Part shown: positions 1 to 15,091 of the stretch, piece by piece
Layout of the letters: each line of letters opens with the position of its first letter
Position numbering within the stretch: the first letter of the stretch is position 1
Source of the DNA: Verrucomicrobiota bacterium
GTDB lineage: Bacteria > Verrucomicrobiota > Verrucomicrobiia > Chthoniobacterales > UBA6821
NCBI GenBank assembly: GCA_008932965.1
Contig: WBXG01000036.1
Location: forward strand, 1 to 17,593
Length of the DNA: 17,593 bases
Reading direction: 5' to 3'
The notes under the pieces: generated by a model
Databases searched by the model: none
What the model saw: the letters and a program-made list of their open reading frames with translations, nothing else
What the model was told of the DNA's origin: nothing
Position numbers and translations under genes: made by a program

Positions 1-128
1 AGGCAGGCGAGCATTTTGATGCAGGGCTGTATGTGTACATACTGCCCAAATCAAAATGGGAGTCTAACGCAGCATCTATCTGACTTCCCGGCTTCCGTAG
101 TAGATCAGTATGAAATATTCGGGCTAGC
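1..128 (+). mobile_element. palindromic MITE-like element, copy A (long form; left part cut by the window edge)
   Basis: Aligns base for base with the right half of copy D (6300-6434). The right terminus gatcagtatgaaatattcgggcta ends at about 127. Strand is defined relative to copy D. Confidence 0.85.
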
Positions 129-838
129 TCTCCAGGAGACTGTGGTGCAGGAGCTGTTATTGAAACCAAACAAGTAAACTCGGTATGATGGCGTTCCTGG
201 TCCGGAAGCGCTGCTGGTGATGCAACCGTAATGGAAACTACTGCTAGACCAGGAAAGAGAGCTCTAGCAATGGTAATAGAGGCTAGTGATACTATATTTT
301 TTCCTCTCAATGGATTCCGTGACTCTGCCAAGCTCATTTCGCTTACTGGTATTCCACACGCATCATAGGCGACAACATGCTTAGATGGAGTTGAGAGCTC
401 TACCCTAATGCAGTGACTGGCATGGTCCATCCAGTCAGAAGAGAGGGCAATCACTCCATTCGGAGAGGTGGCTCGGAGTGTCTCTATAATCCGTTGAGCA
501 ATAAAGATCGCATTCTCCTTTTGCTCCACTTCAAGACTCATGCGTTGAGCAGCAGGCCAGAGATAAAGCATCCCCAGAAGGATAATAGCAAGGAGGCTCA
601 AAGCGACGAGCACTTCTAACAAAGAGAAGGCTAACCCGCATATTTCATACTGATTCTGCTGCGGCTTGCGAACACCTGATGGATACTGCGTCAGCTTCGA
701 ATTGCTCCTCGGGCAGTATGAAACATACAGCCGTCGTCGCAATCCATCACCTTCCTTGTCTGCATCAGGATTAGCGGCGCCTCGCGACGAACCAGTATGA
801 AATATGCGGGCTAAAGAGAGTTCATTTCTTAGGAGCAT
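1..838 (-). CDS. prepilin-type N-terminal domain protein (type II secretion / type IV pilus minor-pseudopilin-like); partial, 3' end beyond the window
   Basis: Absent from the supplied ORF track because there is no stop in the window. My hand translation of the minus strand from ATG 838..836 is stop-free down to base 2. An in-frame stop lies just upstream at 853..851. It contains FSLLEVLVALSLLAIILLG, a prepilin-type hydrophobic helix with Glu at +5. Two repeat-element copies (631-814 and 1-128) sit in frame inside it. Confidence 0.55.
   Translation of the reverse strand, partial: MLLRNELSLARIFHTGSSRGAANPDADKEGDGLRRRLYVSYCPRSNSKLTQYPSGVRKPQQNQYEICGLAFSLLEVLVALSLLAIILLGMLYLWPAAQRMSLEVEQKENAIFIAQRIIETLRATSPNGVIALSSDWMDHASHCIRVELSTPSKHVVAYDACGIPVSEMSLAESRNPLRGKNIVSLASITIARALFPGLAVVSITVASPAALPDQERHHTEFTCLVSITAPAPQSPGELARIFHTDLLRKPGSQIDAALDSHFDLGSMYTYSPASKCSPA
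631..814 (-). mobile_element. palindromic MITE-like element, copy B (short form, 180 bp TA to TA)
   Basis: Terminal inverted repeats are ctaacccgcatatttcatactg (631-652) and cagtatgaaatatgcgggctaa (793-814). It is the same length as copy C and collinear with it apart from small compensating indels. The flanking TA dinucleotides are at 632-633 and 812-813. Confidence 0.85.
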
Positions 839-961: not shown

Positions 962-3685
962 CTACTTCCATTCGTGTTTGGGATAGCGACGTGAAAGTTC
1001 TCCTCGAAGCTTGGGATAGGTCTCCTTCCAAAAAGAATTCAAATCAGAGGTGATTTGTATAGGACGTTTATTAGGAGCACATAATTCCAATATGACAGGG
1101 GCTCGATTACCGGCAAGAGGGGGGATCTTAGTAACTCCAAAGAGCTCTTGGATCAAGGCCTTAAGGATCACTTCACCGGTTGGTTTATAGCGTAGGCGTG
1201 CCTTACGTCCTGAGGGAAGGGGGTAAAATATGGGGGCATGTTTATCAAGGGCATGACGCTGAGCTGATGATAAGAGCATTTCAAGGGCTGCAATAACGGG
1301 TCGATCCTTGACTTCTCGGTAACTAACGGCTCCCTCACACCATCGTTCGAGGGCCCTTAAACGATCCTTCTGAGTCCATGTCGGTAATGCTAACTCTGGA
1401 TAAAAATGAACAACCCACCTAAGACGATCGACCCAAACATCAACCTCATCTCCCCAGGTAGGAAGCGGAAGATCTCCTTGAGCTAGCGCTTCAGCAAGAA
1501 CATGGCTTGCTTCTAGGGAGGGGGGAGCATCCTGCTGTATCGATTCTAATACAAGATCACGATAGATTTTCTCTTTTTTCCATACAACACGGTTTATGGA
1601 GGTATCAAAAAATAATTCTTTAGTCTCATGAAAATCGTTCGGAAAGAGATGTCGTAACATCGATTCATCAACGGCTGTTGCCATCGAGAGTTGGGTGCGG
1701 ACCTCGCCGCTTCCCTGACCAATTTCAGTGATTTCAGCAGCCACAAAAAGTCGACTCGAAGCAGCAGCACTCTCTTTAACTAAAAGGCCACGTCGTCCAT
1801 GAACGACATCTGAGAGATTTGTTCCTGCTCCACGTCGACGTGCTACTTGATCGGCAAATCCAAGAAGAATACATTGAGCAATCAGATCGTCAGAGGCAGG
1901 AGCGGTCTGCGTGTCAAGTCCTTGGGCATGTGCGAGGGAGCAAAATTGTTCAAAGATACGATTGGTTTGTCGTGCAGCATCAGCGTGGATAGCATATTTG
2001 CGGCACGAATCAGAGCGAAACTCATGACGCTTAGCCCAAGAAAAAACTCGGGAGAGAACAAGAAAATCGGAGGTCCCCCCTTCAAAAAGCTCCTGACGTT
2101 CTTCTTCGGTTTTTTTATCAGTTCTTAAAAGCAATGGACGAGATTGTGTGAGGGCTGCCATCAGGGCAATACTGCGAACACAGCCATATTCCTCGGCTGC
2201 TAAGAGCATCCGTGCGTAGCGGGGATGTGTTGGAAATGAGAGCATCCGTTTTCCTAGAGGGGTAATATTTTCCTGGAAATCAAGAGCTCCTAAATCCTTG
2301 AGAAGCTGCGATGCTTTTCCAAGCGCCTGCTCTTCTGGCTTGTCAAGCCACGCCATGGTTTCTATTTGAGAAAAATTCATAGCCTTGAGTGTTAGCAAGA
2401 CTTCTGATAAATCGACGCGTAGAATTTCTGGTGCTTCACGTGCAGGACGTCGTGCCTGATCCCGCTCTGTCCAGAGTCGAAAACAGTGACCAGGAGCAGT
2501 CCTTCCAGCTCGGCCTGCACGTTGATCTGCAGAGGCTCGACTAATTTTTTCAATGAGTAAGGTATTCATCCCACGTCGAACATCGAAACGAGCCATACGG
2601 GCAAGTCCGGCATCGACTACCCCAGTCACCCCATCGATAGTCAGGGAGGTCTCTGCAACATTGGTGGTAACAATAACCTTGCGGGCCTCTGTTGCTGTTA
2701 CAGCCGCGTCTTGATCGGCAGGAGAGAGTTCTCCATGCAAGGGAAAAAGAAGAATGGAGGAGGAGAGCTGAGATCGCAGGAGGTTAATAGTTTTTGAAAT
2801 TTCATAGGCCCCTGGCATGAAGACGAGGAGATGTCCAGAAGTGAGGTGAAGTAATTTCTCGACACCCTCGGCAGCCAGGTCCCACGGTTTTTCTCCTTCG
2901 GATTCACGGGTGAGGTAGTGAAATGTTACAGGATGAGTTCTTCCCGAGGAGCGAATTACCTCACATGGTTCTAAATAATCTGCCAAGGATGCGGTATCCA
3001 ACGTAGCCGACATCACGATGATTTTTAAATCAGGGCGATGATTTTTTTGTAATAGGAGTGCCTGCATCAAGCTGATATCGCTGTAAAGATGGCGTTCATG
3101 GAATTCATCAAAGAGCAAGGTGCTAACTCCCTCAAGATACGGATCAGTGAGCATTTGACGCATTAAGATTCCTTCAGTGACAAAGAGAAGGCGTGTGGAT
3201 GAACTGCATTGTTCATCATGACGGATGCGATACCCCACCTCATCACCCAGTCTTCCTTCTCTCTCCTGAGCAACACGGGCAGCAAGCATACGAGCTGCTA
3301 AACGACGTGGTTGCAAAATCATGGCTTTTTTCGATCCTAATATTCCACCATCAAGAAGCATTTGTGGAATCTGTGTCGATTTTCCAGATCCAGTGGGAGC
3401 CTCTACAATAAGACGGTTGCTAGCACTTAGGGTTGTTACGATTGATTCACGTAATTCCTCAATCGGAAGAGCACTGGGAGTTAACCCGGATATTTCATAC
3501 TGATCTACTACGGAAGCCGGGAAGTCAGATGGATGCTGCGTGGAGTTCGAGGTCTTCCTCGAGTAGTCTGTACACACACAGCCGTCGTCAGACTTCATCG
3601 CTCGCCTTGCCTCATCAGCCTTCACAGCCTCCTGGTCAAGATCAGTAGGAAATATCTGGGTTAATGAAAATTGAGAATGTGCCAT
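962..3685 (-). CDS. hrpB: ATP-dependent RNA helicase HrpB (DEAH-box family)
   Basis: 907-aa ORF. Motifs: APTGSGKST (Walker A), DEFHER (motif II), SATL, TNVAETSLTIDG, QRAGRAGR. The C-terminal tail ...SFWKETYPKLRGELSRRYPKHEWK matches the tail I remember from E. coli HrpB. Codons 9-68 are contributed by repeat copy C. Confidence 0.9.
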   Translation of the reverse strand: MAHSQFSLTQIFPTDLDQEAVKADEARRAMKSDDGCVCTDYSRKTSNSTQHPSDFPASVVDQYEISGLTPSALPIEELRESIVTTLSASNRLIVEAPTGSGKSTQIPQMLLDGGILGSKKAMILQPRRLAARMLAARVAQEREGRLGDEVGYRIRHDEQCSSSTRLLFVTEGILMRQMLTDPYLEGVSTLLFDEFHERHLYSDISLMQALLLQKNHRPDLKIIVMSATLDTASLADYLEPCEVIRSSGRTHPVTFHYLTRESEGEKPWDLAAEGVEKLLHLTSGHLLVFMPGAYEISKTINLLRSQLSSSILLFPLHGELSPADQDAAVTATEARKVIVTTNVAETSLTIDGVTGVVDAGLARMARFDVRRGMNTLLIEKISRASADQRAGRAGRTAPGHCFRLWTERDQARRPAREAPEILRVDLSEVLLTLKAMNFSQIETMAWLDKPEEQALGKASQLLKDLGALDFQENITPLGKRMLSFPTHPRYARMLLAAEEYGCVRSIALMAALTQSRPLLLRTDKKTEEERQELFEGGTSDFLVLSRVFSWAKRHEFRSDSCRKYAIHADAARQTNRIFEQFCSLAHAQGLDTQTAPASDDLIAQCILLGFADQVARRRGAGTNLSDVVHGRRGLLVKESAAASSRLFVAAEITEIGQGSGEVRTQLSMATAVDESMLRHLFPNDFHETKELFFDTSINRVVWKKEKIYRDLVLESIQQDAPPSLEASHVLAEALAQGDLPLPTWGDEVDVWVDRLRWVVHFYPELALPTWTQKDRLRALERWCEGAVSYREVKDRPVIAALEMLLSSAQRHALDKHAPIFYPLPSGRKARLRYKPTGEVILKALIQELFGVTKIPPLAGNRAPVILELCAPNKRPIQITSDLNSFWKETYPKLRGELSRRYPKHEWK
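3481..3664 (-). mobile_element. palindromic MITE-like element, copy C (short form, 180 bp TA to TA), inside the hrpB 5' coding region
   Basis: TIRs are ttaacccggatatttcatactgatc (3481-3505) and gatcagtaggaaatatctgggttaa (3640-3664). The TA dinucleotides are at 3482-3483 and 3662-3663. It aligns with copy B directly, and with copies A and D as its reverse complement. Confidence 0.9.
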
Positions 3686-3724
3686 GATGTATTAAATCAA
3701 CATTGTTATTTTTATCCTAGAAAA

Positions 3725-3744
3725 TGTGAAATATTCGGGCTAGC
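3725..3744 (+). repeat. solo terminus of the same element family
   Basis: tgaaatattcgggctagc (3727-3744) is identical to the terminus of copy A at 111-128. I found no partner end or internal element sequence next to it. Confidence 0.6.
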
Positions 3745-4636: not shown

Positions 4637-5106
4637 TGAAAAAAATAGTGTATCTTTTCCTAGGATTGTTGGTGGCTACAATCCCATCCCAAGCTGGAGA
4701 GAGGCCCTTTGCTCTCTCTGATAATGTTGCCGTGGCCAAAGAAAATGGACGCCGGCTCGCACAGGCTATAACCCATGATGGATTTCGAGTCAGAGAGAGT
4801 GATTGGGTTGTTTCTTTAAAACCTCAAGAGCCTCATCTCTTACGGGTAACCTTGTTTGCAGGAAATCAATATTGGTTTATTGCTGCAGCCTCTCCTCCTG
4901 CTCTCGTGCTACTAATAACCTTGTACGATAGCACAGGCAAGCCGATCAAAGGCGATCGCCTCAAAGAAGAGCCTGCTGTTTCTGGTGCTAGAACTGCAGT
5001 AGGGCTCACCGCTCCTCACAGCGGCAACTATTTTGTCAAATTAGAATTATTGAAATCTCAAGGAAAGCTACCCGCCGAGACCTACCTCGCCTATGCCTAT
5101 AAGTAG
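4633..5106 (+). CDS. hypothetical small secreted protein (signal peptide, probably beta-rich)
   Basis: 157-aa ORF. The N-terminus MMKKIVYLFLGLLVATIPSQAGE is signal-peptide-like. Its ATG overlaps the upstream stop (ATGA at 4633-4636), which implies translational coupling with 3779..4636. Confidence 0.6.
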   Translation: MMKKIVYLFLGLLVATIPSQAGERPFALSDNVAVAKENGRRLAQAITHDGFRVRESDWVVSLKPQEPHLLRVTLFAGNQYWFIAAASPPALVLLITLYDSTGKPIKGDRLKEEPAVSGARTAVGLTAPHSGNYFVKLELLKSQGKLPAETYLAYAYK

Positions 5107-8100
5107 AGAGCTTGTGTATCCGGGTTAACCCGATAGAGGCTTGGAATCACTGCTGCGGCCATCGTGTCAATAGGGAGCTCTCTTTTTAGAAAATGAGCAA
5201 TGGAACGGGCTGCTTGATGGGGGTCTTGAACTACAGAACTATACTCTAAGCAAAGAAGAGGCCAGTTAGCATGATCAATATGCTCTGCCATCGTGATTTC
5301 GTAATGGCGATAGACGTTATAAAGCTGATCTACTGTTGCAATCGACCCAGCCATACGATGTTGTGATGTGATTACCTCCTGAAGAGAGCGGCGCATCCAA
5401 ATGATCCTATAATGGTTCTGTGCGGGGAGATTTAAAGCGAGAGGGATGACCACTTTGGTAGCTCTTCCGGCTTTGAGAAAGAAGGCTTCTTGTGACATTG
5501 TTTTCACCTTCTCGTGTTCAAAATACCCATTGGGATTATGTTCATCAGGGCAGCGATGATAATCTGTATTAATGGCGATCCCGCCTGCTGCGAGCATCTG
5601 CATCATCAATGATGTTCCAGAGCGAGGGAGTCCAGTCACAATAATAGGTCCCTGATTTGAGGAAAGCCTTGAGGAGCGCTTAGGGGAAAGCTTGGTGGAA
5701 AGCTTGGGGGAAATCCTCAAGGAAGATTTTTTTTGGAGAGAAGAAATTTTTTTTATAGGAGATGAATGAAATCCAAGAGCGCTCTGCAAATTTATTTTTG
5801 CCTTCTCTGACTCACAATGATACTGCAAGGCTTGACTTGGATTATTTTTTCCATCCAACGCAATATGAGCAAGAAGTCTGAAAGCATCACTGCGATAAAG
5901 AAAGCTCTTTGAGGCCTCCTGAGCTGCTTTCCAAGCAGCACTCCAGCGACCTTGATGTGAGAGTGAGGTGGCTAATGCAAGCCAAGAAAAACGATGTAAT
6001 GGATTTCGAAGGATCGCCTCACGGGCACATTCTTCTGCCTCAAGAGGCTTCTTTTTTTTATTATAGTAGATTGCTAAGAACGCTAGTGCATCGGCCTCCT
6101 CGTGGCGTACCTTGGCAACATTGCGCAGGAGGGCAACACCTTTTTTCTCCGTGCGATAGGCTAACCCGGATATTTCATACTGATCGTGTCGAGGGAGCTG
6201 AGAAGGTTGATGGGGCACCACCGGCGGTCGGGAGACCGCAGGGGGACTGCCGAAGACTTCCTTTAGGCAGCCCTGAAAGGACGAGAGGAGTGGGAGCGAG
6301 CGAGTCAACGCAGACACGTATTTTGACGCAGGGCAGTAGGAGTGCATACTGTCCATGTCAAAATGGGAGTCTAACGCAGCATCCATCTGGTTTTCCGAAC
6401 TCGGTAGGTGATCGGTATGAAATATCCGGCCTAGGGCAAAGAGGCCTGCATTGAACTGTGCAGCACTATCCTCAGGATGTGCATGGGCATAGGTCAGTAG
6501 TAATTCAAGATCCTCGCTTTTGGAATGAGCCAAAAAGCGAGCTGAAGTTGCTATGAAGTTAATTTTCTCTTCATCAAGAGTAGCACGTGCCATCAGATGA
6601 CGTATCTCCCAAGCTTCTTGAAAAGAAATAGTTTTATTGGTAGAGGAATCTGCTTTTTCCCAAAATTGTCGTAGCGCTTGTTTGGCATCACGTCGACGAT
6701 AGCGTGCAATGTGATAAAAACATGTTGCAGCACGACGCCTTTCTCCCACAAGAAGGTAAGCTGTTGCAAGTTCCTCTAAGATGTCCGTCCGTAATAAAGC
6801 CTGTCCTGCTTTTCTTGCAGCACTACGGGCCTGTTCTAAAAGAGGAATTGCCTGATCAAGACGATCATCATGAAGAAAGGAGAGTGCAAGGTGAAAGATC
6901 TCATTGCAGTGAGCCTCTTGAATAGCTGCCTGTTTATTGAAGGGAATTTCTTGTAAATAACCCAGAGAGACCAGTTGACGTAATGCTGCTTCTGTAGATT
7001 CTGGGGAGGGGGTTGAGGGGCTCCAAGGAGCTTTCCAAAAGCCGTCCCACGAACTAATTTTTTTGATAATTGGTTTTTTAGAAAAAGATTTGAGAAGTAC
7101 TTTTCCAGGCATATCCCTTCCTATTGGCAACCCTGCAATTGCAAGTAATGTGGGGCAGAGATCCAAAATAGTGGCATGATGGATAGCAGCTCCTTGGCGT
7201 ATTTGTGTTCCCTTCATGATGAGCGTCCCGATAGGGGCATGCTGATGCGTTGGTGCTGTCTCTTGAATTCCTAAAGAGCTTGGTCTGCGAGCATCATGAT
7301 AAAACCCATGGTCTGATGCGATCACAATGGTAGACTCCTCTCCAGCAGCTTCTACGAGCTCTCCAATCCATCGATCATAGAGTTCATAAGCGCGATCTAC
7401 CACTTCTCCATAAAGTTCACAGTCGCGTGGTTTTTCTCCAGGCAATGCAGGTTCTCGGTAACACATGGCCAAATGAGAGAGACTATCAAGCCCCACGAGA
7501 TAAAGAGAGGTAAGATCCTGCCTTTTCCTCCTCATCAAGTGCAAGGTCACTTGGAGTGTGGTGAGATCCTCTGCAAGAATTTTAGCAATAGCAGCTACTC
7601 TGAAATCGGTGGTGGGATCAATTTCATAAAGTTTGGGAACGAGGAAGCGCAGGAGCGCTTCAGACAATTGCTGAGGATGTACACGGTCTTGTGCAATTAT
7701 TTTAGAAAGGGACCATGGAGAGACACTTTTAGGGGGAATGCTCCATGGTTCATGGGAGGGATGATGAGCGATACGAAATGTTTCATCGATCATAGCCCCT
7801 CTGATTTTTTCAGCAGGAGCAGTTGTCCACCATCCCACTATGGTGGACGTTTTTTTATAATGAGAGAACATATTCCAAATCGCTGGAGAGCGTCGTGAAG
7901 TCCTATCATAAGGCCTCAAGCCCATTCCCGAATGATCAGCATAGGTAAACCCAGTAATTCCATGTTCATAAGAGTGCTTTCCGGTTCCTATTGTTGCCCA
8001 AAGTGCTGGTGAGAACAGGGGAGAAATCGATCTTAATGGACCGCTGACACCATGGGTAACCATCTTTGATAGATGAGGTAATTTTCCGGCAGCGATTTTT

Positions 8101-8216
8101 AAAGAGAGTAACTCCCAGTCAGCAGCATCTAATCCGATAAAAAGAATTGGTGACATAAAAAGAAGAGGTGTTTTTATATGATTGCGAAGAAATTTTCTAT
8201 CTTCTATATTCACCAC
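5097..8216 (-). CDS. tri-domain protein: alkaline-phosphatase-superfamily (type I phosphodiesterase/nucleotide pyrophosphatase-like) domain + TPR repeats + C-terminal sulfotransferase domain
   Basis: 1039-aa ORF. The N-terminus LFIGLDAADWELL...GKLPHL...SPALWATIGTGKHSYEHGI and IASDHGF are typical of AP-superfamily phosphodiesterases. The middle is helical and TPR-like. The C-terminus has GLPRSGTSL (5'-PAPS-binding loop) and IIWMRRSLQEVITS (3'-phosphate-binding motif) of sulfotransferases. The GTG at 8216 is the maximal start. The ATG at 8156 (MSPILFIGLD...) is probably the real one. Repeat copy D is in frame within the TPR region. Confidence 0.75.
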   Translation of the reverse strand: MVNIEDRKFLRNHIKTPLLFMSPILFIGLDAADWELLSLKIAAGKLPHLSKMVTHGVSGPLRSISPLFSPALWATIGTGKHSYEHGITGFTYADHSGMGLRPYDRTSRRSPAIWNMFSHYKKTSTIVGWWTTAPAEKIRGAMIDETFRIAHHPSHEPWSIPPKSVSPWSLSKIIAQDRVHPQQLSEALLRFLVPKLYEIDPTTDFRVAAIAKILAEDLTTLQVTLHLMRRKRQDLTSLYLVGLDSLSHLAMCYREPALPGEKPRDCELYGEVVDRAYELYDRWIGELVEAAGEESTIVIASDHGFYHDARRPSSLGIQETAPTHQHAPIGTLIMKGTQIRQGAAIHHATILDLCPTLLAIAGLPIGRDMPGKVLLKSFSKKPIIKKISSWDGFWKAPWSPSTPSPESTEAALRQLVSLGYLQEIPFNKQAAIQEAHCNEIFHLALSFLHDDRLDQAIPLLEQARSAARKAGQALLRTDILEELATAYLLVGERRRAATCFYHIARYRRRDAKQALRQFWEKADSSTNKTISFQEAWEIRHLMARATLDEEKINFIATSARFLAHSKSEDLELLLTYAHAHPEDSAAQFNAGLFALGRIFHTDHLPSSENQMDAALDSHFDMDSMHSYCPASKYVSALTRSLPLLSSFQGCLKEVFGSPPAVSRPPVVPHQPSQLPRHDQYEISGLAYRTEKKGVALLRNVAKVRHEEADALAFLAIYYNKKKKPLEAEECAREAILRNPLHRFSWLALATSLSHQGRWSAAWKAAQEASKSFLYRSDAFRLLAHIALDGKNNPSQALQYHCESEKAKINLQSALGFHSSPIKKISSLQKKSSLRISPKLSTKLSPKRSSRLSSNQGPIIVTGLPRSGTSLMMQMLAAGGIAINTDYHRCPDEHNPNGYFEHEKVKTMSQEAFFLKAGRATKVVIPLALNLPAQNHYRIIWMRRSLQEVITSQHRMAGSIATVDQLYNVYRHYEITMAEHIDHANWPLLCLEYSSVVQDPHQAARSIAHFLKRELPIDTMAAAVIPSLYRVNPDTQALYL
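6161..6434 (+). mobile_element. palindromic MITE-like element, copy D (long form, 270 bp TA to TA), inside the tri-domain enzyme CDS
   Basis: TIRs are ctaacccggatatttcatactgatc (6161-6185) and gatcggtatgaaatatccggcctag (6410-6434). The TA dinucleotides are at 6162-6163 and 6432-6433. The ends align with copies A, B, C and E. It carries about 90 bp of extra internal sequence compared with B and C. Confidence 0.9.
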
Positions 8217-11899: not shown

Positions 11900-12198
11900 T
11901 TTTACACGAATATTCCATGCTCCATCTATTACATATTATGGAAAGCTCTATGGCTACTGCGTTGTTCTTGAATTGTAATTTGGAGAGGGCACTTCACATA
12001 CAACCTGGCGTCAAACTTCTCATCTGCATTAACTCGCTCGCACCCACTCGTCTCACCCTTACAGGGCTTCCTAAGAGGCTTCCTAAAAGTCTTACTAAGG
12101 GGCAGTCTCTCCCCCCCCCGCGGTTTCCCGACCGACGGTGGTACCCCATTTGATTCCGCAGCCTCTTCGTCACGATCAGTATGAAATATGCGGGTTAA
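11900..12198 (-). mobile_element. palindromic MITE-like element, copy E (long form, intergenic, one end decayed)
   Basis: Its reverse complement aligns along copy D, from ttaacccgcatatttcatactgatcgtgacgaagaggctg... through ...gggtgcgagcgagttaatgcag. The intact terminus is at 12174-12198. The other end (about 11899-11922, cttttacacgaatattccatgctc) is degenerate. It contains a C9 run at 12111-12119. Confidence 0.75.
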
Positions 12199-15012: not shown

Positions 15013-15033
15013 CGGGTGATCGGTATGAAATAG
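15013..15033 (+). repeat. short remnant of the element terminus
   Basis: gggtgatcggtatgaaata matches the right end of copy D (aggtgatcggtatgaaata, 6406-6424) at 18 of 19 positions. The flanking sequence does not align with the element. Confidence 0.45.
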
Positions 15034-15091
15034 GAGAGATCCATGATATTTTTTGTTTTATGTTGGTGAGCCTTCTCATACTGTGAGTCCT

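Follow-up and report, generated by a model that had tools for sequence, protein, structure and literature searches.

A MITE insertion that adds 90 codons in frame to a phosphodiesterase-TPR-sulfotransferase gene of Chthoniobacterales

Rickettsia is the best-known source of in-frame 'coding' repeats, which are usually tied there to relaxed selection in obligate intracellular bacteria; in Rickettsia gmk, the inserted RPE is both transcribed and translated, and the host protein is still active. RPEs are 105–150 bp long (Ogata et al., 2000, cited after PMC2229807 and PMC10969869), and their target duplication is uncertain (Table 1 of PMC2229807). Among other MITEs, ERIC, the 107-bp Correia/NEMIS element and YPAL have contiguous ORFs and form in-frame fusions (Delihas, 2008, PMC2229807). 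The insertion sequence IS5 makes 4-bp 5'-YTAR-3' target duplications (PMC5009759).

The window analyzed here, that is, the whole stretch of 17.6 kb, comes from a freshwater Verrucomicrobia genome, a Chthoniobacterales MAG from environmental metagenomes. One of its genes carries a repeat, copy D, that is probably a non-autonomous MITE inserted in frame and tolerated as a loop, with the fold of the host protein kept.

Copy D and its host gene

The product of the host gene has a type I phosphodiesterase domain, TPR-like helical repeats and a sulfotransferase domain, and the Pfam matches in the ORF are Phosphodiest, TPR_12 and Sulfotransfer_3. The protein probably starts at M21 (ATG 8156), giving 1019 aa, since the same protein has 1019 aa in other annotations. 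The gene, the insert and the parts of the insert are as follows.

5097..8216, minus strand: host gene, phosphodiesterase-TPR-sulfotransferase ORF of 1039 aa from GTG 8216
6162..6433, minus strand: MITE copy D, long form, 272 bp, coding sense on the minus strand
6161..6164, minus strand: right target-site duplication of copy D, TTAG; codon TTA (Leu685), then the G of Ala686
6162..6185: terminal inverted repeat of copy D, TAACCCGGATATTTCATACTGATC, with 0 mismatches to the family consensus; coding strand ...DQYEISGL
6216..6305, minus strand: internal module, about 90 bp (TRSLPLLSSFQGCLKEVFGSPPAVSRPPVV), setting the long form apart from the 180-bp short form
6410..6433: terminal inverted repeat of copy D with 3 mismatches to the consensus; coding strand L-GRIFHTD...
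6431..6434, minus strand: left target-site duplication of copy D, CTAG; codon CTA (Leu595), then G

Translation confirmed the in-frame block of 90 aa that a sequence-only reading had placed in the 1039-aa ORF: copy D adds exactly 270 bp, or 90 codons (residues G596–L685), and the minus strand reads ...AAQFNAGLFAL / GRIFHTDHL...PRHDQYEISGL / AYRTEKKGVALL... across it. The TA dinucleotides at 6162–6163 and 6432–6433, which are the outer bases of the inverted repeats, were also found to be exactly 270 bp apart, as that reading had stated. The inverted-repeat arms are 24–25 nt long and 88% complementary, and the predicted fold of copy D reaches −97.8 kcal/mol (z = −5.07), which is better than shuffles by 5 sd. 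Ten occurrences of the repeat motif were counted in the window, while 0.01 are expected from shuffles. Copy D is about 20% diverged from the long-form consensus, and its internal module was delimited by aligning long and short copies and by comparing the encoded peptides. A Pfam search of the insert peptide gave no match, and no family reached its gathering score in an Rfam scan of the window.

The presence of the same block in homologues had been named as evidence against an insertion; the 90-aa block is absent from all 14 aligned orthologues, distant ones included. The closest orthologue, P0002, which is 83% identical over the aligned part and lies in conserved gene order, has an empty site, uninterrupted at the DNA level (GCC TTA GAA CAT vs GCC C[TAG...GGGT]TA GCC TAT in the window). 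In silico excision of the block rejoins the host sequence, as had been claimed, and the result is colinear with the orthologues.

All 12 full-length population variants, obtained from several assemblies, carry copy D in an open state, which means fixation of the insert in the population sampled, and no frameshift or stop occurs in them anywhere in the 1019 codons. Five SNPs inside copy D define two haplotypes, which were seen in independent assemblies. In this small sample of 20 nucleotide differences in all, there are 5 nonsynonymous and 0 synonymous changes in the 270 nt of the insert and 15 changes (9 nonsynonymous, 6 synonymous) in the 2790 nt outside it, which gives an odds ratio for variable sites of 3.8 (p = 0.02). 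Against the orthologue, dN/dS, which blends the time before and after the insertion, is 0.13–0.26 in both gene halves and 0.21–0.26 downstream of the insert. No empty allele of the same species was recovered: a metagenome scan found neither the predicted excised junction nor the filled-junction control, and the collection evidently does not contain the locus.

The AlphaFold2 model of the insert-bearing protein has a mean pLDDT of 87.5, and all residues that are invariant across 58 homologues are retained in this protein. Within the Pro/Ser-rich insert the pLDDT falls below 50, to around 30, while the flanking helices 564–579 and 658–683 are intact; in the model of the insert-free orthologue, the site corresponds to the end of helix 564–576 and the turn 577–579. 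The insert is thus a predicted disordered loop at the C-terminal end of a helix and a 3-residue inter-helix turn. Prediction with and without the 90 aa, proposed earlier as a check, left the neighboring helices in place and corrects the accompanying claim that the insert interrupts a TPR helix: the AlphaFold2 models place it at the C-terminal end and turn and not in mid-helix.

A second case was found in orthologues of another species, P0005 and P0007, which have a copy of the family in the linker before the sulfotransferase P-loop; at the DNA level (L093 5252–5550) it adds 297 bp, in frame. This second insertion, at a different site, is an independent event.

The repeat family and its YTAR target

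At least 128 paired copies of the repeat were found in four Chthoniobacterales MAGs, and more than 89 loci have the repeat, nearly all in four Chthoniobacterales/Spartobacteria MAGs among the matches listed. The suggestion that the block is a copy of a repeat element is borne out by these dispersed inverted-repeat copies. The modal form adds 180 bp and the largest copies reach about 300 bp, with no transposase ORF; the short form falls into four subfamilies, each of 180 bp, and the terminal inverted repeats are conserved across the 128 copies. The window holds five copies and two fragments, which, besides copy D, are the following.

1..126, minus strand: MITE copy A, truncated where the window begins; in frame, close to the 3' end of a 302-aa ORF
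632..813, minus strand: MITE copy B, 180-bp short form; in frame, close to the 5' end of the 302-aa ORF
3482..3663, minus strand: MITE copy C, short form, 180 bp, in an orientation opposite to that of copy D
3719..3742: solo repeat-like fragment
11902..12197, plus strand: MITE copy E, a long-form element in the orientation opposite to that of copy D, with a degenerate left repeat
15018..15041: solo repeat-like fragment with 71% identity to the reference repeat

The 302-aa ORF that holds copies A and B leaves the window at its start and is complete at L091 17319–18227. Copy C lies in frame after codon 7 of a helicase ORF at 962..3685, which is HrpB-like by Pfam (MAHSQFS-L[TQIFPTD...DQYEISGL]TPSALPIEELRES), and in the Tobar MAG, too, an element begins at the orthologous position (L090 10431). 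Copy E is intergenic, with the L27 gene on one side and a formyltransferase gene on the other. No similar DNA was found in the plasmid collection searched.

To the left and right of the copies, the flanking 4-mers are identical in 76 of 127 cases (34.6 ± 4.4 in shuffles), and each of the flanking Y and R positions matches in 102 of 127, where about 62 are expected. The target duplication of the family is accordingly 4 bp, YTAR. A target of TA, as proposed in the sequence-only reading, is correct for the ends of the elements and too short for the duplication; a TA-only duplication of the IS630/mariner type was rejected because the matching extends to the flanking Y and R. With YTAR as the target, read-through insertions always fall in a Leu codon (YTA/R).

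The 90-aa peptide matches 81 cluster representatives out of 1.84 billion, mostly short ORFs on MITE copies, and these few matches, together with the lack of a Pfam match, led us to reject the peptide as an ancient protein domain. A profile search with the peptide returned 218 mostly 45–107-aa hypothetical proteins, all from Verrucomicrobia MAGs wherever the source names the organism; MITE copies are widely mis-annotated as hypothetical proteins of this size. It was also observed that contig ends in these MAGs often coincide with MITE copies (L090 ends inside one), and the copies thus break MAG assemblies.

The approximately 600 kb of related loci sampled yielded no transposase or IS with matching repeats. 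Pairs of repeats 0.6–3.5 kb apart enclose ordinary genes (ketoacyl synthase, glycosyltransferase) and no transposases, and no multi-copy ORF emerged when 400 ORFs of ≥200 aa from these loci were compared all against all by BLAST; no autonomous parent element was thus recognized among the sampled loci. The repeats of the elements (CCCGGATATTTCATACTGATC) are not known to resemble the ends of E. coli IS5.

Reading frames and the fate of the insertion

Stops in the repeats close two of the three phases (TAA/TAG, and TGA inside ACTGAT). The phase that has YTA as a codon, phase 2, is alone open, and it is so in both orientations in 4/4 subfamily consensuses of the 180-bp form. Long ORFs contain 13 of the 128 copies, and all 13 are 3n and in phase 2; the hosts include, by Pfam, PheT, GlnD, PyrF, an FtsX-like permease and PMT, and in hosts other than the phosphodiesterase-TPR-sulfotransferase the insertions lie between Pfam domains. 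A further 30 of the 128 copies sit exactly on a stop codon, and a limited literature check found no description of such a placement for a quarter of the copies. Genes struck by the family include those of PheT, GlnD, PyrF, HrpB and the phosphodiesterase-TPR-sulfotransferase.

According to its consensuses, the 180-bp short form is apparently built for read-through, being 3n and open in phase 2 both ways. The long form differs, as 10 of its 24 copies are 3n and 4–5 of the 24 are open, which means that, for either orientation taken alone, about one long copy in six is open, and a stop-free design of the long form was rejected on these counts. The open frame of the host ORF had been attributed either to selection for the frame or to an element designed to be stop-free; design thus fits the short form and fails for the long form, copy D included. 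Since the long form is not built to be open, copy D most likely survived through a chance in-frame, stop-free state, and its openness could be partly luck because the long-form family is not generally stop-free.

We propose that a long-form MITE entered a Leu codon (YTA, then a purine) of the phosphodiesterase-TPR-sulfotransferase gene after the split from the lineage of the 83%-identical orthologue, and that the 4-bp YTAR target would have been duplicated on insertion. An IS5-type transposase presumably mobilized the element in trans, as a YTAR duplication is a signature of such transposases. Because the 270 bp are 3n and phase 2 is stop-free in copy D, the ribosome would pass straight through and produce a 90-residue peptide that starts with L-GRIFHTD and ends with DQYEISGL; read-through of the −98 kcal/mol hairpin is assumed here by analogy with RPEs. 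The peptide would then be extruded as a disordered loop where one TPR-like helix turns into the next, antiparallel one, and since the loop leaves from this turn, the fold would be kept; the host protein may well remain functional.

It is unlikely that the insertion inactivated or functionally split the gene and that the open frame merely reflects the youth of the insertion in a pseudogene in the making. Such a fate would fit the long-form copies, which are not designed to be open and of which 4–5 of 24 are, and it would fit the 9 nonsynonymous vs 6 synonymous changes outside the insert, a high ratio though the counts are small. However, the insert is fixed in the 12 variants without any frameshift or stop in 1019 codons, the residues invariant across the 58 homologues are all kept, and dN/dS remains at 0.21–0.26 downstream of the insert; the divergence of about 20% from the long-form consensus suggests that the insertion is not very young, and like insertions in PheT, GlnD and PyrF are hard to reconcile with inactivation. 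Quite improbable, too, is an exaptation in which the loop now serves as a flexible linker, as a segment for binding or regulation or as a regulatory mRNA hairpin, and is under positive or purifying selection. The fixation of the insert and the gain of a same-family element in the same protein by orthologues of another species would be in line with it, but these two insertions do not share a site, and the peptide has no Pfam match and is predicted to be disordered (pLDDT around 30). Within the population, moreover, the insert is changing more quickly than the remainder of the gene, and at nonsynonymous sites only (odds ratio 3.8, p = 0.02). On the side of exaptation, short-form open frames exceed the prediction of a random-mutation simulation (37 observed vs 19.6, and 37 vs 24.8), which assumes that the copies are independent descendants of one consensus; the subfamily structure violates this assumption, so that the excess shows open source lineages and not selection on each copy.

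Removal of the element after transcription or translation, as an intron or intein, would explain the exact multiple of three and the colinearity of the excised sequence with the orthologues, and yet it is extremely improbable: the window has no Rfam match, group I and II introns included, Pfam finds no Hint or intein domain, the junctions L/GRIF...SGL/A lack the Cys/Ser/Thr and His-Asn of inteins, and the anatomy is that of a MITE, with inverted repeats, target duplication and many intergenic copies. We give hardly any credence to the block being ancestral sequence lost elsewhere or an assembly chimera from a collapsed repeat. MITE copies do often occur at contig ends, as at the end of L090, but the block is bounded by family repeats and a target duplication, it is missing even from the distant ones among the 14 orthologues, and independent assemblies carry it with 5 internal SNPs in two haplotypes. 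A MITE inserted in frame and tolerated as a loop therefore remains the probable explanation for copy D.

Beyond copy D, it is conceivable, though rather doubtful, that the 180-bp family has been shaped by element-level selection for translation compatibility wherever it lands. YTAR targeting makes each insertion in the Leu-codon phase (YTA/R) readable, insertion on a stop codon regenerates that stop, and the 180-bp form encodes disorder-prone peptides. If this were true, the family would be a 'coding-safe' transposon that steadily seeds disordered loops and linkers, housekeeping enzymes included, into the proteomes of environmental bacteria without known host association.

Comparison with RPEs and other MITEs

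By its size, inverted repeats, target duplication, empty sites and many dispersed copies, the family is, on sequence grounds, one of MITEs. It is a family of RPE-like in-frame 'coding' MITEs, a kind that is known, here with a repeat family and a bacterial lineage that are both new. That environmental Chthoniobacterales have a family just as pervasive indicates that the phenomenon extends beyond the intracellular lifestyle. It offers a clean model, with a defined target (YTAR), a frame rule (Leu vs stop codon) and two forms of differing coding compatibility, and it suggests a mechanistic account of how a transposon may add disordered loops to proteins without killing them.

RPEs resemble the present family in being short and palindromic, with inverted repeats at the termini and a long stem-loop by prediction; they have intergenic copies as well as in-frame copies within conserved protein genes, and their insertions lie in loops, surface or inter-domain regions that suit the fold. 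In both, no function is known for the peptide, and inserting it seems to be neutral or slightly deleterious. The family is likened to RPEs by this behavior and is not filed as RPE, given its Chthoniobacterales host and the absence of an Rfam match: RPE hosts are obligate intracellular Alphaproteobacteria, whereas the present hosts are Verrucomicrobia (Chthoniobacterales MAGs). The present elements are also longer (180 or about 270 bp vs 105–150 bp) and, unlike RPEs, have a clear 4-bp YTAR duplication and are readable in the same phase in both orientations.

With ERIC, Correia and YPAL, the family shares small size, inverted repeats, target duplication, terminal TA and a hairpin transcript, and the 107- and 155-bp Correia elements parallel the short and long forms in that the stop-free variant decides the presence inside genes. 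It differs from them in sequence family and phylum, and in that even aminoacyl-tRNA synthetase and nucleotide-metabolism genes are struck. IS630/Tc1-mariner-derived MITEs (e.g., RUP of pneumococcus) likewise have TA at both termini, but the duplication of the present family reaches Y and R, which a pure TA target does not predict. The 4-bp YTAR target duplication is shared with IS5, from which the present element differs in having no transposase gene and a length of only 176–270 bp.

Copy D and the empty site in orthologues of its host gene

The phosphodiesterase-TPR-sulfotransferase ORF (5097..8216, minus strand, GTG start; Pfam domains Phosphodiest, TPR_12 and Sulfotransfer_3) had been read from sequence alone as staying open across a repeat, and translation confirmed a continuous frame of 1039 aa. 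It reads ...AAQFNAGLFAL-GRIFHTDHL...PRHDQYEISGL-AYRTEKKGVALL..., with a middle block of 90 residues (G596-L685). The insert, copy D, is a long-form copy of a MITE (small non-autonomous transposon with inverted repeats) and is bounded by 24-25-nt inverted repeats (6162-6185 and 6410-6433; 88% complementary), whose outer TA dinucleotides were measured to be 270 bp apart, as claimed. Its G+C content is 0.56 against ~0.44 around it, and it folds into an end-to-end stem-loop (-97.8 kcal/mol, z = -5.07 relative to shuffles). The repeat motif occurs ten times in the window versus 0.01 expected, and two solo repeat fragments are present in addition to the following copies.

Copies of the MITE in the window
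Copy A: up to 126, truncated by the window start
Copy B: 632-813
Copy C: 3482-3663, 180-bp element in the minus-strand ORF 962..3685, orientation opposite to D
Copy D: 6162-6433, long form, inside the host gene
Copy E: 11902-12197, degenerate left repeat

Copy E, an old copy of the long form, lies between the genes for L27 and a formyltransferase; in locus L091 (5856-6224), a gene caller had put a 122-aa ORF on it.

A search of 5.8 billion proteins assigned the host gene to Chthoniobacterales (Verrucomicrobia) MAGs. The 90-aa block had been proposed to be an insertion, and in the alignment it is absent from all 14 of the 14 best orthologues. The closest one, P0002, with 83% identity across the aligned part, has the sequence ...AGLFALE-HRKEKKG... 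at the site. On its syntenic contig the empty site is GCC TTA GAA CAT CGC, while the window DNA is GCC C[TA GGCCGG......CCGGGT][TA] GCC TAT CGC, and in-silico removal of the element plus one duplication copy regains colinearity. We also collected 12 full-length same-species variants (at least 99% identical; NCBI, JGI and ENA assemblies), and the insert is present and open in all of them. Differing start-codon choices and a single 4-residue deletion outside the insert account for their lengths of 1019, 1035 and 1039 aa, and a haplotype differing from the window at 20 nucleotides is identical in two independent NCBI assemblies. On these grounds, ancestral host sequence and an assembly chimera are both rejected as the origin of the insert, and an artefact is a less likely explanation.

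The orthologues P0005 and P0007, from another species and sharing 53-54% identity with the window protein, lack an insert at the TPR site and carry element peptides directly before the sulfotransferase P-loop (...PRYDQYEISGL-NRPIIVTGLPRSG). At the DNA level, the P0005 copy (L093 5252-5550) has recognisable repeats and adds 297 bp. This element is an insertion independent of copy D. At the shared site it spans 99 aa in one protein (P0005) and 60 aa in the other (P0007), so its internal module has since been gained or lost in steps that are multiples of three. The region lies in the TPR-sulfotransferase linker (P0002 residues 711-804, window protein ~830-853), which is long, of low complexity, very variable in length among orthologues and modelled with pLDDT <50.

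Target site and reading frame of the MITE family

An exact-match scan with 19 nt of the repeat, using one genome per GTDB species, matched more than 89 loci, nearly all from four MAGs (Kiruna_bin-02438, Tobar2m-G38, Deming_bin.170 and SMAG_U8253), with copy densities biased by the selection of loci through repeat matches; among the matches listed, other phyla were few, each with a single match. Pairing of the repeats yielded 128 complete copies (L001-L089 and the window, among the matches listed). The modal increment is 180 bp (52 of 128 copies), and 76 increments are multiples of three. The long form, to which copy D belongs, is heterogeneous (261-304 bp) and has an extra internal module of ~90 bp. 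Folding of the 180-bp consensus gives an almost perfect hairpin (-89.5 kcal/mol). The family has no Rfam match, the element-encoded peptide no Pfam match, and no plasmid relatives of the family were found. The 180-bp subfamilies, assigned by pairwise scores on partly palindromic sequence, seem to be mosaics: in cluster 1, the left half is that of cluster 2 and the right half that of cluster 5, a pattern suggestive of exchange between copies by recombination or gene conversion. Intergenic copies are widely annotated in MAGs as 'hypothetical proteins' of 45-107 aa (P0137-P0309; locus-tag prefixes K9M81, QE493 and DVB29), probably spurious genes from the element's open frames.

In 95% of the copies C or T precedes the left TA, and in 98% A or G follows the right TA. 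When the left 4-mer (flank base, TA, first element base) was compared with the right one (last element base, TA, flank base), the two were equal in 76 of 127 copies versus 34.6±4.4 with shuffled partners. Therefore, the target duplication is 4 bp, YTAR; the TA ends noted earlier are borne out, and the duplication is larger than TA. YTAR is the motif reported for IS5 (PMC5009759), and a TA-type target as in IS630/mariner was rejected on the basis of this duplication.

Counted from the terminal TA, phase 0 meets TAA or TAG at the start and phase 1 is closed by a TGA within the repeat (ACTGAT), leaving phase 2 as the sole phase able to stay open. Combined with the YTAR target, this gives in-gene copies a YTA codon, always Leu: every in-ORF copy starts with L-[TA]RIFHTD and ends with ...SGL, and in copy D the codons are Leu595 (CTA) and Leu685 (TTA). 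Where TAR is itself a codon, the duplication restores the stop codon. The exact stop-codon position (ORF of at least 100 codons) is occupied by 30 of the 128 copies versus 3.2% for YTAR sites overall in these loci. Stop codons seem to serve as a 'safe' place to land that is either favoured or retained preferentially.

The sequence-only reading had asked whether the frame was selected or the element built to be stop-free, and the answer differs between the two forms. Phase 2 of the 180-bp consensus is open in both orientations (forward peptide TRIFHTDLLRRPGSQMDAALDSHCDLGSMYTYSPPPNSSPALPHQPSRPPRHDQYEISGL; reverse peptide TRIFHTDRDEEAAKADGV...DQYEISGL), and it is open in 58 of the 128 copies forward and 50 in reverse, the other four frames being open in 0-9. 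At a 22% core-divergence cut-off the 180-bp elements fall into four subfamilies, and each has a 180-bp consensus with both phase-2 frames open. Shuffling the consensus interior left both open in only 2% of trials. Open frames were kept in more copies than expected from random mutation of the consensus (37 vs 19.6 and 37 vs 24.8), an excess inflated by shared subfamily ancestry. Among 24 long copies, 10 are multiples of three and 4-5 are open; their 265-bp majority consensus is closed, and only two, one of them copy D, are open in both orientations. The short form therefore looks built for read-through, whereas copy D is more likely the survivor of a filter.

Copies in other genes

Judged by open frames and Pfam, 13 of the 128 copies have an open frame of at least 60 codons on each side, two or three of them being tandem-element artefacts. 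All are in phase 2 and multiples of three (8 forward and 5 reverse, orientation resting on pairwise scores of partly palindromic sequence).

Examples of genes with in-ORF copies (Pfam)
PheT: between tRNA_bind and B3_4
GlnD: between HD and ACT; second copy near the N-terminus
Orotidine-5'-phosphate decarboxylase: near the N-terminus
FtsX-like permease: internal
PMT/TMEM260-like glycosyltransferases (two): internal
Endo/exonuclease-phosphatase protein: near the N-terminus

Another 15 copies are in frame with a long ORF on only one side, and in 14 of these the long ORF is downstream, placing the copy at the ORF 5' end. Copy C, one of the 15, follows codon 7 of an HrpB-like helicase, MAHSQFS-L[TQIFPTD...DQYEISGL]TPSALPIEELRES...APTGSGK, and no alternative start codon was found 3' of it in this ORF. 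In the Tobar MAG an element starts at the orthologous HrpB place (L090 10431) and the D site is empty, so copy C is older than copy D. Contig JAIPKF010000027.1 terminates inside this copy (L090 10431-10552), and repeats at position 1 or the contig end of several loci suggest that the family has fragmented MAG assemblies.

A single 302-aa ORF (window 1-838, minus strand; L091 17319-18227) has copy B at its N-terminal end and copy A at its C-terminal end. The next ORF, of 987 aa (L091 18910-21873), contains one copy following codon 6 and part of another; neither ORF has a Pfam match. The 302-aa ORF has a hydrophobic N-terminus after the insert (AFSLLEVLVALSLLAIILLG) that looks like a prepilin or pseudopilin signal.

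Predicted structure, selection and known systems

AlphaFold2 modelling from a 58-sequence alignment (model numbering is window numbering minus 20) gave the insert-bearing protein a mean pLDDT of 87.5. Model residues 584-656 have pLDDT <50 and no regular structure, and the flanking helices (564-579 and 658-683) absorb the repeat-encoded GRIF and DQYEISGL ends. In the insert-free P0002 model, helix 564-576, turn 577-579 and helix 580-593 all have pLDDT >95, and the insertion site, L575/E576, coincides with the C-terminal end of the first of these helices; two other orthologues have small indels at the same position. The proposed interruption of a TPR helix is thus correct as to the region, but the models place the site at the inter-helix turn rather than in the helix body. 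The insert is predicted to loop out with the repeat stack undisturbed, and its removal by splicing is considered less likely.

Substitutions between two population haplotypes
Insert (270 nt): 5 nonsynonymous, 0 synonymous
Rest of gene (2790 nt): 9 nonsynonymous, 6 synonymous

Variable amino-acid columns are 5 of 90 in the insert versus 14 of 929 elsewhere (odds ratio 3.8, p = 0.02), which fits a tolerated, weakly constrained loop; exaptation of the insert is a less likely reading. Relative to P0002, dN/dS has a value of 0.13 before the insert, whereas beyond it the TPR part gives 0.26 and the sulfotransferase domain 0.21, in a comparison with dS of about 0.75 that mixes pre- and post-insertion time. 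Given these low ratios and the retention of all residues invariant across the 58 homologues, the gene is not decaying on either side of the insert, and pseudogenisation is likewise less likely.

The best-supported reading of copy D is an event like those of the Rickettsia palindromic element (RPE): a non-autonomous transposon, mobilised in trans by a putative IS5-type enzyme, would have inserted into a Leu codon at a surface turn and been read through as a disordered loop. We infer that copy D is translated and that the host protein retains activity. According to reviews, contiguous ORFs are common in bacterial MITEs, and in-frame host fusions are reported for RPE, ERIC, the 107-bp Correia form and YPAL; the fusion frequency of RPE is exceptional, and one RPE-bearing enzyme, gmk, was shown to be translated and active (PMC2229807; PMC10969869). 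Full-text searches of open-access papers turned up no account of elements of this kind in Verrucomicrobia. We file this MITE as a new family among the in-frame-fusing bacterial repeats, not as an RPE; its short and long forms parallel the 107-bp versus 155-bp dichotomy of Correia.
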